From: a virus
DNA length: 11,653 nucleotides
Strand: one strand, 5' to 3'
Virus genome (UHGV): UHGV-1581764
Shown: one piece after another, positions 283 to 11,645 of the stretch
Numbering within the stretch: position 1 is the first letter of the stretch
Layout of the letters: every line of letters begins with the position of its first letter
The notes under the pieces: generated by a model
What the model was told of the DNA's origin: nothing
Database searches by the model: none
Seen by the model: only the letters and a program-made list of their open reading frames with translations
Position numbers and translations under genes: made by a program

Positions 283-1323
283 TTACATGGGCTTAACCAC
301 AACCTTTCCGTATATATCAAGTTTTGAATGTAATACGTTGACGTGAGACAATTCTTTATTCGAACTAACTTTATCTAAAATTATATTTTTATCTTTTTCA
401 GTCATGTTATACCCTAAGGTAATTTGCTTGAATGCAGAAAAAGGAATTTTCTTTAAGTTAATTTCATGATAGTCATGAAAAACATCAGGATACTCATTTA
501 ATAGGCAATCATCAATCGATGGAGAGACAATACTTCCTATCTTTCTCTCGCAATCAGCTAAAGGAAAAATAATTCTACTTTCATTTTCAGGAAGCCACTC
601 TTCACCTTTTGTATAAAGGAGCCTATTAATAAAAAGCTCGCGAACTGAATCTCGATTTAAGATCCCATGCAATGTATTATCTTTATTCTTTATATCTATA
701 TTCCTCGATGGCGCAGGATAGCCATTAAATCGCACAGCGCCTTTATAATAGGTTACAGATGCTCTATCTTCTGGATTATAACTAACATCACACGGCCTAT
801 ATATTTTGAAAAAATCGTGTGTTTCATCGAAAACTACAGCAAACCCCTTTCCTATCGATGCATAATGAGTCCACATGTGTAGATTGCAATCACTTTTTGA
901 TAGAGAGAATACACCAAGATGACAGCTTACGGCTTCTACTAAATAATCGTTAAGGTACGTTACTATTTCTTGGGGTTTAGATTCATCATATGAATCCATT
1001 GAGGTAAAACCTTCATTGATTAACAAGTGTGGAAAATCCTCTCCGTATCGTTTCCCGCAAGGTTTTAAATAATACTCTAACTCTTGTATAGATGGGACAT
1101 AAGATGGATCTCGTTGCATTTTCTTAAATTCATTTCTAGCCCATGCGTAATCGGCTGGTGAAAATTTATTAAAAAATGGAAGAAGTCGCGACTCACTCGA
1201 CGGATCATTAAGATACTTTGGTTGCGTTGCTCTAAAGAAACCATCCTCCAGACAAGATGTTCTAATGTGCATGCCCGGCCAAGGTTTTTCCATATAACTC
1301 TCGCCTATATATTTAACTAACAC
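283..1323 (-). CDS. Hypothetical protein with DUF2971-like core signature; AT-rich accessory cargo gene (candidate defence/exclusion protein)
   Basis: Longest ORF in the island, 346 codons as given. The start at 1323 is GTG with AGGA about 10 nt upstream; the first in-frame ATG is at 1293, preceded by purine-rich GGCGAGAG, so the start is uncertain. Stop TAA at 283..285. Hand counts of G+C: 15/60 (361..420) and 23/60 (901..960) inside this gene versus 30/60 (2101..2160) in darB. The segment HLGVFSLSKSDCNLHMWTHYASIGKGFAVVFD resembles, from memory, the conserved core of Pfam DUF2971; not verified by search. Confidence 0.7.
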   Translation of the reverse strand: MLVKYIGESYMEKPWPGMHIRTSCLEDGFFRATQPKYLNDPSSESRLLPFFNKFSPADYAWARNEFKKMQRDPSYVPSIQELEYYLKPCGKRYGEDFPHLLINEGFTSMDSYDESKPQEIVTYLNDYLVEAVSCHLGVFSLSKSDCNLHMWTHYASIGKGFAVVFDETHDFFKIYRPCDVSYNPEDRASVTYYKGAVRFNGYPAPSRNIDIKNKDNTLHGILNRDSVRELFINRLLYTKGEEWLPENESRIIFPLADCERKIGSIVSPSIDDCLLNEYPDVFHDYHEINLKKIPFSAFKQITLGYNMTEKDKNIILDKVSSNKELSHVNVLHSKLDIYGKVVVKPM

Positions 1324-2094: not shown

Positions 2095-5000
2095 TTATGC
2101 GTATTGTTGGATGACGGCCAGAACGTCCGCCACGTTGTGTTTTGTCTCGATAATCCACCAGTTACCCGGGAAATCGCTGTTCTTCGCCTTCGCTGGCAGC
2201 CAGCGAGCGCCGAATTTCGCCTTGATTGCGTCTTTCGCACGGAAAAGAATGCCTTTCATGCCGGACGCCTCCTGAAGCCCAAATACCTCGCCAGCGGCGA
2301 ATTTTGGTGCGTACATCATCTTCAGGTCGGCGGTGGATACGCGATAATTCAGACCAAGAGACTGAGTTATGCTGGTGGCATCACCCTGTATTGATGATAA
2401 CTCTTCTTGTTTCTCGTTTCTGGCGGCAATTTCTTCCTCCGTGATGTTGCCAAGGGCCAGGTTTATCCGATCAGCGTCTGCCTGTTTCTCTTCATCGGTG
2501 CGCCCGGCAAGTACCGTGTTAATTCTGTGCAATATCTCCACATGATTCTTGCGCATGCTGAGCAACGCTGGCGTAACCTCGTTAAGGTCCACCAGCCCAA
2601 GGATGGCAAGGTCAGTAAACATTGATACCAGGTTGTAGGTCATGCGATAGCTGAGTTGCCCATAGGCTGATGGCAACTGCACCGCATCCATTTGATAGGC
2701 ATCCATAAATTTAGAGCCGTCGTTTACGACATCCGCAATTGCCGGTGTGATTTTCCCTGTGGTGGCGGCCTCCCTGATTGCTGTTACCCACGATTGAGTC
2801 AGCGCGGCGACTGCATGATTCAGATTGGCTTTCCGTTCTGCTGCAATACGCGCGCTTGCAGCGTCCATTGCCTGCTTGATCTCGTCTTTATTGCTGTAAA
2901 TGCCAATGGTGCCAAACTGTGCTGTGGTGATCTCATAATCTGACGCCCGGAACTCATGGGTACCGAAAATGGCATTGGTGACCTCAAGTTCAGAATCCCC
3001 GTTACGAGTAGCCCCCTGGCTTGTTTTCTCCGGCATTCTGGCGATCGCATCCGCTATTTTCTCCTGAATTGCTTCAGGGGATAGCGTATCTCCGTATGAC
3101 GCGATTACATCGCCATAATTGGAGCCAAACAGTTCAGTCAGGAATACTTCTGCCAAACGGACCTGGCGGTTATTCCCTTCCGACATCATACCAAGCACCC
3201 ATTTTGCAATTGACGACTTCAGCGCGCCGTCACGGCGATCCGGGTAAACCGCATGCTTCAGTGGGTCCGTATAGGTACCAACAAAATCAATGCTATAGCC
3301 TGACTCTGTAGTCTGAACGCCGTATGAGTCAGTGATTTTGATCATGCCGCGCTGCTGGAAACGGTAGAAATCGTCACAGGAAATGATGTCGTTAATCCCG
3401 GCGATGGAGACGCCACCACTGATTTTCTGCATAACAGCATCTTCATCGGGAGTTACATCCACCTGTTTATCCAGCGTCTTCACATCCCAGTTACCCGATT
3501 TGGTGCCTTTGAAGGTAAAGATGATCTCCACGTCTGCGCGCTGGCTGTCGAAGTCCAGCGACTTAATGCGAACGATATCACCGGCACAATCGTAGTATTG
3601 GCCTACACGCCATGAGCGATCGCCGATAACAAGGAACTCATTCGCATGGTTAACCAGATCAGGATCAACATCCAGAATGCCTTTATTTATTGCATCCTCC
3701 ACCAGCGGGCGCAGGCGTTTGATATCCGTCGCGGCCTTCTGAGTACGGTTCAATAATTTCTCATAGCGGGAGATGGCCTGAGAGATATTAGCCTTGCGCT
3801 GAATGGCGCTTTTCAACGACGCGCGATACTGTGCTAACAACGTACGGTCTGTGTGATGGACGCTACCCCAGCGGGCCTTCCAGTCTGCGTTATCAGCTGC
3901 TTTGGCCATTGCCGCCTGTTTGAATTTAGCTACCTCGGCGGTGGTCTTTTCAAGTTCCGCTTTGCTTCGCTCTAATTCAGCGGTAAGTACCTCCACATCC
4001 TCGCCAGCTGCGTGCTGCGCCTTGATGTAATTCTGAAGGTCGATAGTAGCCTGTTCTTTCTGGCGAGCGCGTTTCGCAGCTTTCGCCTTATCCATTTGAA
4101 CCTGCATCATTGCCAGACGTTCGCCGTCATCCTTCGCGGTATACATCTGCATTTCGATCATGTCATTGGCGTCGGCGTTCTCCATTTCCGACTTATCTGA
4201 ACGGAGGATATCGGAGATCCAGCCTGCTTTACGCTTCAGCGTCTTCAATCGGTATTCATCGAAAGACCCCTTGCCGCAGTAGTAGTGAACGCGAACGCTT
4301 GCACGGTTGGAGCCAACTCGAGCACCGCGACCGTTACGTTGTGCGATGCTGGCTGGAGTCCACGGCAACGTCAGGTGGTGGATATCCGTCGTTCCTCGAT
4401 GCAGGTTGATACCCACCTCTGCCTTTTTGTTGCAGATGATGATCGGAGTCCGGCCCTCCTGGAAGTCGGCTGCAATCTTTTCCAGACCGCCCAACGACAT
4501 TTCATTTTGCTGCGCGATATAGGCGTCATACAGAGCCATTTGCTCGTTGTATTTCGCTATCTGTGCATCTGTTGGTTCATCCGGTAGCTCTTTCGGCGGT
4601 TTAACCGCTTTCAGTTTCTTACCGGTTTTACCTGCCTCGGCAACCGTCTGAGCATTCAGGATCCCCACCTTTGAAGGTTCAAGGTTAAGAGCATTGCAGA
4701 TAATGCGCTTGAGCTTCTGGTGCTGCGTTTTTTCATCGGTGAAGATGATTTGCTTACCTTCCGGGAAAAACTCCTTCAGCGTGGCAATCAGCTTCGCGTA
4801 TTTGGGCGTAACGGGGTGAGTTACGGTCTGTTCGTCAATGCCAAACCTGGCCAGGCGCTTATTCACTTCCTGCTCGAACGCTTCCGGAACCTGTAACTGA
4901 ATAAACTCGCCCTTATCTATCAGGGAGTATTGCGATTGCTGCGTGATTGAATCATCACTGTCGTCGTCTTCGCTGGTGGCTTGTTTAGGCAAACTGTCCG

Positions 5001-8000
5001 CCAGCTGCTGCACCGCATCGGCGTACTCCGGCAGGAAACGATAGGTGATCCGGCGATAGTACAGGTCCATGTCAGTACATACGCGGTCCATATCCCTGAT
5101 TATTGAGAAGATCGGACGGGCTTTCTCGTGCTCAATCACGCCGTCTTCATTGACCGAGGTCGTTACGCCATTGTTGGCTTTGGCTGCCGCTTCCGCCTGC
5201 TGACGCAATTCTTCATACGCCGCCAGTTGTTCTTCAGTAAGTGGTGCATCCTGCTGGTGTTCGTCCAGCTCCGGGATCTCCACGGTATCCTTAACGTCTT
5301 CCGCCGTTTTAAGCGTTACCCAGCGATGGAATATACCGCGCAGCGCATCAAGGTTTTCAAAGCCCACCAGCGCCATTTTTTCTTCAACTTCACCGCTGAT
5401 TTTCTGTACCGTTTCCAGCCTGGTCTTACCGAAGAATTTAACGAAGTCATCAGGACCGTAGATCCCCATCTTCTGCCAGTATTCCTTCGGCAGAACATGA
5501 GAAAGCATGTTGTATGCATCGATCGGGGTGTTAACGACTGGCGTTGCAGTCAGGAGAACCGGCCCGCGCCCGCCATTCTTTTTCATCAGGTACGCGTTTT
5601 TAATTGCCATATCTCGCGCCGATTGCGCCACCGCGCTGGTGGGCAGATAGGCCAGCTGTGACGCTTCGCGACCATTTTTATAGCTATTGCGGTAGTTGTG
5701 GCCTTCGTCGGCGATCACGCTGTCGAAGCCCATATCCTCAAAGTACGGATACTTCTCTGCTTTTTCGGTGCCAGTATCTGAATACTCCGACAATACCCGG
5801 CGACGCGCGGCCTCTTTGCGGTGGGAGTCGGAGTCAATTGCGCTGGCTACGCGCCCGGCAGCAACGAAGTCATAAAGCATATCCTGTGCATGCTCATCTA
5901 CGGTGTCATCACGTAGCGGAATGCGGGCGTATTGTTCTTTGGTAAACACGACTGCACGGTAATTTGAGTGCGGGATCGCATTCATCCGCGCCGTGATAGT
6001 GGCTTCATCTGCCAGCTTAAGAGCATCGCGCATAACTGGAGTGCCATCAGTACCAAGAACAGGTTTACCGTTCTCATCGAGCACCGGCACCTGGCGAATC
6101 TGATCGCCATCCATCAGCACATCAAGACCGACGAACAGGTAGTTACTGAATGCCTCTTCACTCAGGAATTCTTTTGCTTCGTAATACCAGTTTTCCAGCA
6201 CTGATTTAGGCACTACATACGCAGTACGGGTGGAGCGACCGTTCTCATAGTTGAACGCCTCAAGTGCCAGCGCGGTCGTGGTTTTACCCAGCCCGGTGCC
6301 GAAGCCCAGGATGCCACGCCCATCTTCGGACAGTCGGCGCACCTCGCTATTCTGGTAATCAAATGGCTGGCGCTTACCGCTTAATCCCTTCAACCCAAGC
6401 GGATCGCCAGAGTGTTCATACGGGATATTGCTATTGAACACATCGTTGTATTTGGCAACCAGCTCATCGTAGCGATCGTGCGTCTTGATCCACTTATTGA
6501 ACTGGTCCTCAAGCAGTGCCATCTGCTCGCGGTAGCCGTTCGCCGTCGCGCTATCTTTGCCACCGATACGCGCACCATTGAGATACTTTTCCAGCTGTGC
6601 CGGGAACCCGGTCGCGTTTTCTCCTGATTTACGGTCCCACTCGTAGCGGATCTCGCCTGTTTCTTTATCCTTGCGCTGGACGACACCGTATCGGTGCCCG
6701 ACGAACAGGCCATCACCACCGTGATAGGTGTCAGAAACCATTTCGTCGCCTTCCAGCTGCACTGACTGCACATAGCGCAGATCCGGATAGCCGTTTTCCT
6801 GCAAAAATTCCAGAATGACGGAACGGTCGAACCAACGGCTATTGAGCTTAAACCGGATATTCTCTGCTGGCGTCTTGATGCGCTTCTCTTCGATCGCTGC
6901 CAGCTGATTAAGGACGTTGTTCTTTACTGGACCGTCGGGGAGCGTGGCGAGGAACTCCTGTTTTGGAGCCACTATCTCGTTAATGTCGCCGCTGGTGGCG
7001 CGGGCAAACGGAACAATCCCGCCATACGGTGAAACCGCAATGCCAGGGGTGCTGGCCAATAAATTAAGCAACTCGTCATCACTGGCTGGCAGTTCGCCGG
7101 TAAACGCAAGGCGGAAATCATCGAGCTGGATTGGATCGCGAGTGAGATCACTGTAGAGATAACGCAGGGTATCCTGATAGCTGGTGGAGTCATAACTGGC
7201 GCTGGAATCATGCGTAACCAGTTTTCCTGTCAGCTCGTCAGAAATAGTGCCATCCAGCTTAATTGCACCACGGAAAGCAAACCAGGCGCGCGCACCGCTC
7301 CCCGATAATTTCGCTATCGGACCGCGACCGGGGTTACCAAAACGGTCAATCTCTGCCTGCAAACGGGATACCAGAGAAAGGCGCTGCTGTTCGATTTGTT
7401 CAGCACTATGCCCGGCGGCCTTCATATCCTGATATTCAATTAACATCCGGCCAATCATCGCCCCACGATACAAGCGTTCACGGTATTTTTCAGGCTGGCT
7501 GTTAATCCAGTCCACCAGCTGCACCATATCGTCGCTGATTGATGTGGTGTACTTATCGCGGACATTTGCCATCTGGGTAAATGTCATACCGAGACGGCCT
7601 TCTGTTGTAGTCAGGTTACGCTGAAGAGCCTCCCAGCTATCCGCGCCATAACTGGCAACCTCAATCTTCAGCTCCTTCCCGGCATCAGCTTCAATCCAGC
7701 GACCACCAGCATATTTTTGCCATACGCCATTAATCAGGCGCATTTCCCCTTCATCAACAACATCTGCGGTCGGTGACGGTTCAGTCATATCGAGCAAAGA
7801 CCAGTCGATACGACTTTCGAAACGATGAATCAGCTTCGCTTTAAGAGCCTGGTTATCAATCTGCCCGTCGGCACGAACCTCAATACGCCCCTGGAAACCC
7901 TTCTCCTGGGTGCCATGAACAAACCGGCGGCCGTCCTTTTCGAACCACTTGCCAGAAATAAACGTTGGCCAAAGCACATTTGCCGATTCAAGAGTGCCTT

Positions 8001-8862
8001 CATCCACCAGGGGGATTTTCTCAGCCATCTCTGCCGGATGTTTACGCATCAGCACCACATCAACGACCGTACTGGTCCCGTTTGCGTCAAAAGTACCGGT
8101 AGGCAAGCGGTGAGCGCCAAGAAATTCAGCTTTACGGGATAGGCGCAGGCGTAACCGCTTCATGTTTGAACCTGAAACAATGGACGGCGGCACAATCACG
8201 CACATGAATCCGCCAGGCTTTATCTTGTCCAACATGCGGAGCATGAAGTAAGACCCCATGTCCGTTTCTTCTGCGTAAGGTTTATCGATGTTGCGTGTGT
8301 TATCACGACCACCGAACGGAACGTTACCCACCACATGGTCGAATGAATCGTTAGGCGTGCTTACAGCCAGCTGTTCGAACGGGGAAATCTGTACGCTGTC
8401 TTCCGGGTGTAACAGCTGGTTTATACGACCGGAAACACTGCTGATCTCAGTCGCGGTCATCACCGTACCAACCGGTTTTGTCTCATTAAAAACGCCGGTG
8501 CCCGCCGATGGTTCCAGAGTATTACCTACGTCCGCGCCATAGAGCTTCATGATCTCCCAGACACCTTCAGCGATAGGCTTTGGTGTGTAATATTCGGAGA
8601 CGGACCCGCCAATGCCGCCTTCGCCGGTGTACCCAGCCAGGATCTGGCGCTGTTCATCTGTCAGTGTCGCGCCGTCCACCAGCGAATTAAGCAAATCTAT
8701 CGCCTTCTGATTCGCCTCCCGGCGTAGTCGGTCATAGCTTTTGCCTTCCACCTTTTCCACGCCGTATCTAATCGGCGCTCGGTGAGATGTTATTGCCCTA
8801 ATGTATTTCAATATTTCGCTGACACTTGAACAGCGAAACACCCCCATAGATAGCTTGTTCAT
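2095..8862 (-). CDS. darB: DarB-like antirestriction protein: N-terminal N6-adenine methyltransferase-like domain fused to an SF2 DExH helicase, with a long C-terminal extension
   Basis: Uninterrupted 2255-codon ORF. ATG at 8862..8860 with AAGGA 6 nt upstream; stop TAA at 2097..2095. Methyltransferase motif I LEPSAGTGVF is encoded at 8488..8517 and a motif IV-like FDHVVGNVPFGG at about 8310..8340. Helicase Walker A GTGLGKTTT is at 6274..6300, DEGH at 5698..5709, TATP(V)VN follows, and the motif VI-like QRNGRGAR is at 4318..4341. This architecture and the length match what I recall for phage P1 DarB (about 250 kDa, methyltransferase plus helicase). Confidence 0.9.
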   Translation of the reverse strand: MNKLSMGVFRCSSVSEILKYIRAITSHRAPIRYGVEKVEGKSYDRLRREANQKAIDLLNSLVDGATLTDEQRQILAGYTGEGGIGGSVSEYYTPKPIAEGVWEIMKLYGADVGNTLEPSAGTGVFNETKPVGTVMTATEISSVSGRINQLLHPEDSVQISPFEQLAVSTPNDSFDHVVGNVPFGGRDNTRNIDKPYAEETDMGSYFMLRMLDKIKPGGFMCVIVPPSIVSGSNMKRLRLRLSRKAEFLGAHRLPTGTFDANGTSTVVDVVLMRKHPAEMAEKIPLVDEGTLESANVLWPTFISGKWFEKDGRRFVHGTQEKGFQGRIEVRADGQIDNQALKAKLIHRFESRIDWSLLDMTEPSPTADVVDEGEMRLINGVWQKYAGGRWIEADAGKELKIEVASYGADSWEALQRNLTTTEGRLGMTFTQMANVRDKYTTSISDDMVQLVDWINSQPEKYRERLYRGAMIGRMLIEYQDMKAAGHSAEQIEQQRLSLVSRLQAEIDRFGNPGRGPIAKLSGSGARAWFAFRGAIKLDGTISDELTGKLVTHDSSASYDSTSYQDTLRYLYSDLTRDPIQLDDFRLAFTGELPASDDELLNLLASTPGIAVSPYGGIVPFARATSGDINEIVAPKQEFLATLPDGPVKNNVLNQLAAIEEKRIKTPAENIRFKLNSRWFDRSVILEFLQENGYPDLRYVQSVQLEGDEMVSDTYHGGDGLFVGHRYGVVQRKDKETGEIRYEWDRKSGENATGFPAQLEKYLNGARIGGKDSATANGYREQMALLEDQFNKWIKTHDRYDELVAKYNDVFNSNIPYEHSGDPLGLKGLSGKRQPFDYQNSEVRRLSEDGRGILGFGTGLGKTTTALALEAFNYENGRSTRTAYVVPKSVLENWYYEAKEFLSEEAFSNYLFVGLDVLMDGDQIRQVPVLDENGKPVLGTDGTPVMRDALKLADEATITARMNAIPHSNYRAVVFTKEQYARIPLRDDTVDEHAQDMLYDFVAAGRVASAIDSDSHRKEAARRRVLSEYSDTGTEKAEKYPYFEDMGFDSVIADEGHNYRNSYKNGREASQLAYLPTSAVAQSARDMAIKNAYLMKKNGGRGPVLLTATPVVNTPIDAYNMLSHVLPKEYWQKMGIYGPDDFVKFFGKTRLETVQKISGEVEEKMALVGFENLDALRGIFHRWVTLKTAEDVKDTVEIPELDEHQQDAPLTEEQLAAYEELRQQAEAAAKANNGVTTSVNEDGVIEHEKARPIFSIIRDMDRVCTDMDLYYRRITYRFLPEYADAVQQLADSLPKQATSEDDDSDDSITQQSQYSLIDKGEFIQLQVPEAFEQEVNKRLARFGIDEQTVTHPVTPKYAKLIATLKEFFPEGKQIIFTDEKTQHQKLKRIICNALNLEPSKVGILNAQTVAEAGKTGKKLKAVKPPKELPDEPTDAQIAKYNEQMALYDAYIAQQNEMSLGGLEKIAADFQEGRTPIIICNKKAEVGINLHRGTTDIHHLTLPWTPASIAQRNGRGARVGSNRASVRVHYYCGKGSFDEYRLKTLKRKAGWISDILRSDKSEMENADANDMIEMQMYTAKDDGERLAMMQVQMDKAKAAKRARQKEQATIDLQNYIKAQHAAGEDVEVLTAELERSKAELEKTTAEVAKFKQAAMAKAADNADWKARWGSVHHTDRTLLAQYRASLKSAIQRKANISQAISRYEKLLNRTQKAATDIKRLRPLVEDAINKGILDVDPDLVNHANEFLVIGDRSWRVGQYYDCAGDIVRIKSLDFDSQRADVEIIFTFKGTKSGNWDVKTLDKQVDVTPDEDAVMQKISGGVSIAGINDIISCDDFYRFQQRGMIKITDSYGVQTTESGYSIDFVGTYTDPLKHAVYPDRRDGALKSSIAKWVLGMMSEGNNRQVRLAEVFLTELFGSNYGDVIASYGDTLSPEAIQEKIADAIARMPEKTSQGATRNGDSELEVTNAIFGTHEFRASDYEITTAQFGTIGIYSNKDEIKQAMDAASARIAAERKANLNHAVAALTQSWVTAIREAATTGKITPAIADVVNDGSKFMDAYQMDAVQLPSAYGQLSYRMTYNLVSMFTDLAILGLVDLNEVTPALLSMRKNHVEILHRINTVLAGRTDEEKQADADRINLALGNITEEEIAARNEKQEELSSIQGDATSITQSLGLNYRVSTADLKMMYAPKFAAGEVFGLQEASGMKGILFRAKDAIKAKFGARWLPAKAKNSDFPGNWWIIETKHNVADVLAVIQQYA

Positions 8863-11645
<2,783 letters not shown>

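Follow-up and report, generated by a model that had tools for sequence, protein, structure and literature searches.

A conserved N-[VI]-P-F variant of methyltransferase motif IV in DarB, the anti-restriction protein of P1-like phages

We analyzed a stretch of 11,653 nucleotides from UHGV virus genome UHGV-1581764 (the window), which belongs to a P1-like phage and carries darB on its minus strand. DarB is a classic anti-restriction factor, defined genetically in 1987. In its methyltransferase-like domain, residues 180–183 read N-V-P-F at the site of the catalytic motif IV, which in gamma-class amino-methyltransferases is (N/D/S)-P-P-(Y/F/W), so that three of the four positions fit. Judged by comparison of homologous sequences, NVPF is the native motif IV of DarB, a variant of the NPP(F/Y) loop that defines the DarB clade and whose valine is derived and under selection. 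We consider it probable that NVPF forms a functional catalytic loop in a methyltransferase domain that works or, at the least, binds S-adenosylmethionine (SAM) and the target base.

The segment at 7800–8862 of the window is 97–98% identical in DNA sequence to P1, P7 and related punaviruses, and of the 19 matching P1-like phage records, 18 align at 97–98% nucleotide identity over at least 80% of the query. The open reading frame (ORF) of darB (Table 1) is placed between ulx and prt, matching the P1 annotation, in the order lxc (1376–1624), ulx (1621–2061), darB and a prt ORF from 8879. Its product has the same length as P1 DarB (NC_005856) and aligns with it free of gaps, 2230 of 2255 residues being identical (99%); none of the 25 substitutions relative to P1/P7 DarB falls in the motifs discussed here, and nothing material differs. 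The motif IV block itself (FDHVVGNVPFGG, residues 174–185) is identical in reference P1 DarB, so the initial annotation, which had allowed that NVPF might simply be the native P1 sequence, was right on this point. The gene and its sequence, and hence NVPF in this window, are already known: they became public with the deposition of the P1 genome, whose record already labels DarB a putative adenine methyltransferase and helicase. In the literature, P1 DarB is described as a capsid-packaged, co-injected protein that protects DNA in cis against EcoK and EcoB, and DarB-type proteins as a methylase–SNF2 helicase 'dyad' of polyvalent proteins (Iyer et al. 2017, PMC5512222).

The alignment of NVPF with gamma-class motif IV, proposed by the initial annotation from the letters alone, was borne out by profile, sequence and structural comparisons. 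Two Pfam matches span the motif, N6_Mtase (PF02384; residues 145–290, 32.8 bits against a cut-off of 20.4) and Eco57I (PF07669; residues 166–244, 31.8 bits against a cut-off of 25.3). Both phmmer and the family profile set 'GNVPFG' opposite 'TNPPFG' of EcoKI HsdM (2y7c/2ar0), and the NVPF block opposite 'ANPPFG' of the StySJI-type HsdM 2okc and 'SNPPF' of BsaXI; M.TaqI, CamA and PacII were also recovered in profile alignments of the domain. An AlphaFold2 model (mean predicted local distance difference test score, pLDDT, 79.8; predicted template modelling score, pTM, 0.79) has a Rossmann-like fold in which strand beta1 (113–117) leads into the PSAGTG loop, beta2 (133–139) ends in E139 and beta4 (174–180) ends in N180. 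In the model, this strand order, with NVPF directly after beta4, is the gamma-class layout and places the tetrapeptide at the canonical motif IV site. The top matches of the model in the PDB, as found by Foldseek, were gamma-class N6-adenine DNA methyltransferases, among them BsaXI, HsdM proteins, M.TaqI, M.BseCI and CamA (E 3e-10 to 1e-7) as well as PacII.

A canonical motif elsewhere in the protein would have pointed to a different alignment; a pattern scan of all 2255 DarB residues found no [NDS]PP[YFW], and the alignment therefore stands. The two relaxed matches outside the block, DKPY at 193 and NIPY at 812, do not exceed the roughly 2.5 that we estimate to arise by chance in 2255 residues; the latter (residues 812–815; 6418–6429, minus strand) precedes the SNF2 domain by about 20 residues and is outside any methyltransferase fold. 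On the opposite strand, an antisense ORF of 84 amino acids (8288–8542, plus strand) had no Pfam match, and an Rfam scan of the window gave no structured RNA match. Another non-canonical case in the superfamily was seen in PDB 7eew chain A, a type I methyltransferase of Vibrio vulnificus YJ016, where 'YDFVISGVPFGK' (residues ~253–264) aligns to DarB 'FDHVVGNVPFGG', with Val at position 2 of motif IV and Gly replacing the catalytic Asn.

We then asked how widely the variant is shared. A HMMER search with DarB residues 1–400 against 1.84 billion cluster representatives retrieved 7840 relatives at E≤0.001, and the family counts given below refer to the query plus the best 150 of these (50%-identity cluster representatives), 151 sequences altogether. 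All but three of the best 150 share 38–65% identity with the query, and 120 are at least 1800 amino acids long (median 2225). NVPF was found in 130 of the 151 sequences, followed by NIPF in 12, NPP[FY] in 6, and NLPF, NAPF and TLPL in one each. By position, Asn180 is kept in 150; position 2 is Val in 130, Ile in 12, Pro in 6, Leu in 2 and Ala in one; Pro182 is present in all 151; and Phe183 in 147, with Tyr in another three. Of the flanking residues, D175 is kept in 150/151 and G184 in 142/151. The sole decayed motif IV, TLPL in the context FDSALATLPLAAR, belongs to P0180, a DarB-clade representative of 1083 amino acids whose motif I is intact and which may be a true pseudo-enzyme offshoot.

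A second, independent sample, of 77 loci from species genomes, was chosen by the motif I pattern alone and was unconditioned on motif IV. It contained NVPF at 72 loci, NIPF at 2 and NPP[FY] at 3, with no other variants, in hosts from several phyla: Enterobacterales, Vibrio, Shewanella, Desulfovibrio/Bilophila, Nitrosomonas, Burkholderiales, Moraxellaceae, Avibacterium, Alistipes, Phycisphaerae and Anaerolineaceae. The valine is encoded by GTG (35), GTC (15), GTT (13) and GTA (9), and this use of all four codons across phyla indicates that selection acts at the amino-acid level. NVPF was also present in 80 of 80 viral contigs, although the scan pattern was partly conditioned on it. We found nothing to support a sequencing error or a mutation private to this isolate; given the identical block in P1, the 18 of 19 P1-like records, the viral contigs and the 72 unconditioned genome loci, that explanation is refuted and keeps practically no probability.

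The conservation of NVPF is accompanied by that of the other methyltransferase motifs (Table 1). The SAM-binding elements E/D-P-x-x-G-x-G-x-F of motif I and T-P of motif X are present as LEPSAGTGVF and EYYTP. Within the family, motif X retains T93 in 148 and P94 in 146 of 148 ungapped representatives, and its N-terminal 'TP' cap is known to contact both the cofactor and the motif IV Asn (PMC5512222, PMC3814359). Motif I is held at P118 (149/151), G121 (145/151), G123 (150/151) and F125 (150/151), and position 139 in motif II is acidic in every sequence (Glu in 128, Asp in 23); from its counterparts Asp114 (CamA) and E118 (RlmJ), we infer that E139 binds the SAM ribose. F162 (149/151) and E163 (151/151) are kept in the motif III region, as are P254 and F258 (each 147/151) in the late motif. 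At an overall identity of about 40%, conservation thus reaches 97–100% for N180, P182 and F183, for motifs I and X, for E163 and for the acidic position 139. The SNF2-type motor is likewise intact in DarB, with matches to SNF2-rel_dom (42.4 bits) and Helicase_C (27.7 bits) and the motifs GLGKT, DEGH and QRNGRGAR; in the 120 full-length representatives, GxGK[TS] occurs in about 115, DExH in 104 and QxxGRxxR in 119.

The closest comparison outside the clade is with a sister family of Eco57I-domain proteins from Myxococcota and metagenomes (around P0070), which are about 28% identical to DarB and share with it motif I (EPSAGxGxF) and a G-x-R after motif IV. They differ in motif IV, which is canonical NPPY or NPPF in 69 of the 70 members with a readable motif and NVPF in the remaining one. 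Neighbour-joining analysis of the methyltransferase core places all six NPP[FY] sequences of the DarB clade in one nested, monophyletic group, from which it follows that Val and Pro have interchanged on a single scaffold; the Ile variants are scattered over the tree. A change from Val to Pro requires two nucleotide changes, and both one-step intermediates, Ala and Leu, were observed once each. On this rough distance tree, the simplest history would be a change from NPP(Y/F) to N-V-P-F at the base of the DarB clade, long retention and one reversion.

The likely effect of the substitution can be judged from the contacts described for motif IV. In gamma- and alpha-class enzymes bound to DNA, the target adenine is hydrogen-bonded by the side chain of Asn/Asp and by the first Pro through its main-chain carbonyl, while the aromatic residue contacts N7 through its amide and stacks its ring on the base (PMC8187626, PMC3814359); in CamA, the cofactor ribose is the stacking partner of the second Pro (PMC8187626). 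Because the first Pro contributes solely this carbonyl in the solved N6-methyladenine (m6A) DNA methyltransferases (PMC8187626, PMC3814359), replacing it with Val removes no catalytic group. The change should take away the constraint of the ring and add a beta-branched side chain.

Active enzymes with such a loop are known among the rRNA adenine-N6 methyltransferases, which carry N-[ILV]-P-[YF]: NIPY in ErmC', NVPF in PikR1 and PikR2, NLPY in DIMT1 and NLPF in TFB1M (PMC6787224, PMC10915109). The premise of the initial annotation, that position 2 is almost always Pro, therefore holds for characterised DNA amino-methyltransferases and for 69 of the 70 sister proteins, but not for N6-adenine methyltransferases in general, where Erm, KsgA, Dim1, TFB1M and PikR depart from it. 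NVPF fits the Erm/KsgA motif IV consensus (A/S/N)(L/I/V)P(Y/F) quoted in PMC6787224. These enzymes (PF00398) nevertheless form a separate methyltransferase family with RNA substrates, and membership of DarB in it was ruled out, there being no profile or structural relationship: DarB gave no PF00398 match at E≤0.1, and Erm/KsgA proteins were absent from its 18 PDB profile matches and from the top 50 Foldseek matches. The likeness, by this comparison, is convergent. DarB shares with EcoKI HsdM, M.TaqI and Eco57I-type enzymes the fold, the succession of motifs (X-I-II-III-IV), motif I together with the TP cap and, within motif IV, the Asn, the second Pro and the aromatic residue. It differs from them in having Val for the first Pro, in its fusion to an SNF2 motor and some 1,400 further residues, and in having no identified specificity subunit or target-recognition domain.

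Taken together, these data are best accommodated if NVPF acts much as NPPY does. [quoted passage not shown] Val, sometimes Ile, has been kept by purifying selection together with the SAM- and base-binding residues and the intact motor domain. In keeping with the literature, DarB may be injected with the P1 genome, track along P1 DNA by means of its SNF2 motor and methylate adenines in cis, so that the incoming DNA would not be restricted by EcoKI/EcoBI-type enzymes. The step from conserved catalytic residues to DNA methylation by DarB is one that we infer from sequence, and several points weigh against it. No report of methyl transfer by DarB or its close relatives was found in the literature searched, and the biochemical mechanism of DarB is still unexplained according to a 2024 paper, which calls it undefined, a 2025 review, which goes no further than a hypothesis of shielding, and a 2026 structural paper. 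The enzymes known to be active with N-[ILV]-P-[YF] act on RNA and belong to another family, no target-recognition domain was identified in DarB, and the confidence of the structural model drops immediately after motif IV (mean pLDDT 69 over residues 181–190). Lastly, the conservation of SAM- and base-binding residues shows selection on binding but does not show that turnover takes place.

Alternatively, the domain might be a pseudo-enzyme or binding module that has lost turnover but retains SAM binding and the ability to flip or grip a base. It would then clamp DNA, occlude Type I target sites or act as an HsdM-like decoy, and the change from Pro to Val would be part of the shift. Such a role would agree with the lack of reported methylation, with the finding that the solved structures nearest to DarB in sequence are those of HsdM subunits from the very Type I enzymes that DarB defeats, with the decayed TLPL motif of one family member and with the alignment of 'SGVPFG', Gly standing for the catalytic Asn, in the Type I M subunit of PDB 7eew. 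We nevertheless regard it as rather unlikely. Pseudo-enzymes typically show relaxed catalytic and cofactor motifs, whereas in the DarB clade N180, P182, F183 and motifs X, I, II and III are 97–100% conserved across several phyla and decay is confined to one of 151 sequences. Moreover, revertants with canonical NPP[FY] are nested on the same scaffold, and the Val backbone preserves the sole group that the first Pro contributes. For these reasons the suggestion of the initial annotation that the domain might be catalytically impaired and act only in DNA binding finds no support, Val or Ile being fixed clade-wide alongside near-invariant cofactor- and base-binding residues.

The initial annotation also considered altered substrate handling, which is possible. 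The N-[VI]-P-F loop, similar to that of the rRNA dimethyltransferases that form N6,N6-dimethyladenine, might have changed the chemistry, permitting a second N6 methylation, single-stranded or sequence-independent substrates, or a non-adenine acceptor. The literature ties (A/S/N)(L/I/V)P(Y/F) to dimethylating N6 methyltransferases and (N/D)PP(Y/F/W) to monomethylating ones (PMC6787224, PMC3814359, PMC10915109), the substitution is fixed and selected rather than a product of neutral drift, and the absence of a recognisable target-recognition domain would fit low sequence specificity. Yet PikR1 carries NVPF and is reported to be monomethylating (PMC6787224), and the motif hence does not fix the degree of methylation. 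DarB also lacks an rRNA dimethylase Pfam match, its sequence and structure neighbours are all DNA m6A or N4-methylcytosine methyltransferases, the nested NPP[FY] revertants argue that Val and Pro are functionally interchangeable within the clade, and N6,N6-dimethyladenine would be expected to hinder base pairing in a genome that must replicate. Altered chemistry accordingly seems improbable to us. More speculative still is the idea that N-[VI]-P-F is an adaptation giving a more open, Erm/KsgA-like pocket for a reaction beyond those of canonical NPPY DNA methyltransferases; candidates, equally doubtful, would be motor-coupled, sequence-independent methylation or a second N6 methylation. If true, either would account for the ability of a single injected protein to neutralise Type I enzymes of different specificities.

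A full-text literature search for NVPF, NIPF or NLPF together with methyltransferase returned only papers on RNA enzymes, and the clade-wide N-[VI]-P-F signature appears to have gone unremarked in the literature searched. It is a modest refinement: a survey of methylase-helicase proteins gives NPP(Y/F) as the methylase motif (Iyer et al. 2017, PMC5512222), a general statement that the signature corrects for the DarB clade. D-x-x-[VI]-x-N-[VI]-P-F-G can serve as a sequence signature separating this clade from its NPPY sister family, and a conserved, selected N-V-P-F, as opposed to a lesion, focuses experiments on the catalytic loop of DarB.

For such experiments there is a trap in the DNA of the gene. 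Plasmid-borne darB alleviates EcoKI restriction independently of DarB protein, and plasmids with darB mutated at catalytic residues still do so (PMC11109961). Because the effect stems from Chi and EcoKI sites in the DNA, the result with the mutants is uninformative on the protein (PMC11109961). Chi sites (GCTGGTGG) are strongly enriched in the window, 14 being observed between 2371 and 11060 against 0.27 expected. Eleven of them are inside darB, at 2371, 2589, 3699, 4972, 5364, 5635, 6991, 7180, 7512, 7703 and 8676, which agrees with the 11 sites reported for darB (PMC11109961).

Table 1. Coordinates of darB and of the domains and motifs of its product in the window
Feature	Position	Strand	Basis or remark
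darB coding sequence	2095–8862	-	2255 amino acids; ORF list and translation, identity to P1 DarB, ulx-darB-prt neighbourhood
Gamma-class SAM-dependent amino-methyltransferase domain (residues ~86–300)	7963–8607	-	Pfam, AlphaFold2, Foldseek; boundaries approximate
Motif X, E-Y-Y-T-P (90–94)	8581–8595	-	Aligned to QYFTP of HsdM
Motif I, L-E-P-S-A-G-T-G-V-F (116–125)	8488–8517	-	SAM-binding loop after beta1; family conservation, AlphaFold2
Motif II, T-A-T-E-I-S (136–141)	8440–8457	-	E139 at the end of beta2
Putative motif III region, S-P-F-E-Q-L (160–165)	8368–8385	-	Assigned from its position after beta3
Motif IV block, FDHVVGNVPFGG (174–185)	8308–8343	-	Translation, profile alignments
Motif IV tetrapeptide, N180-V181-P182-F183	8314–8325	-	Codons AAC GTT CCG TTC; plus strand reads GAACGGAACGTT
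Late methyltransferase motif, H-R-L-P-T-G-T-F (251–258)	8089–8112	-	Aligned to RLPTGIF of EcoKI HsdM
SNF2-type superfamily 2 (SF2) translocase/helicase module (~833–1520)	4303–6366	-	Pfam SNF2-rel_dom, ResIII, Helicase_C
Walker A, GFGTGLGKT (853–861)	6280–6306	-	SNF2 module motif
DEGH (within 1051–1059)	5686–5712	-	SNF2 module motif
QRNGRGAR (within 1508–1517)	4312–4341	-	SNF2 module; motif VI arginines

Outside darB, the window departs from reference P1 in its gene content between mat and lxc. Where P1 has the EcoP1I res-mod genes and IS5, there is an ORF of 346 amino acids (283–1323, minus strand). It carries a DUF2971 domain (Pfam E 4.3e-6) and strongly matches phrog_1762 (E 1e-71), which is of unknown function. 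The arrangement of mat, the DUF2971 ORF and lxc is common to only 2 of the 29 matching phage records (MH422554 and MH445380), and the ORF is unannotated in MH422554. On the other side of darB, the longest prt ORF (8879–10633, plus strand) begins with a GTG at 8879, 17 bases from the darB start, and the prt start given in the P1 annotation is about 60 bases further in than this GTG. The ends of prt and pro lie about 14 bases earlier in the window than a simple P1 offset predicts, which points to small insertions or deletions relative to P1.

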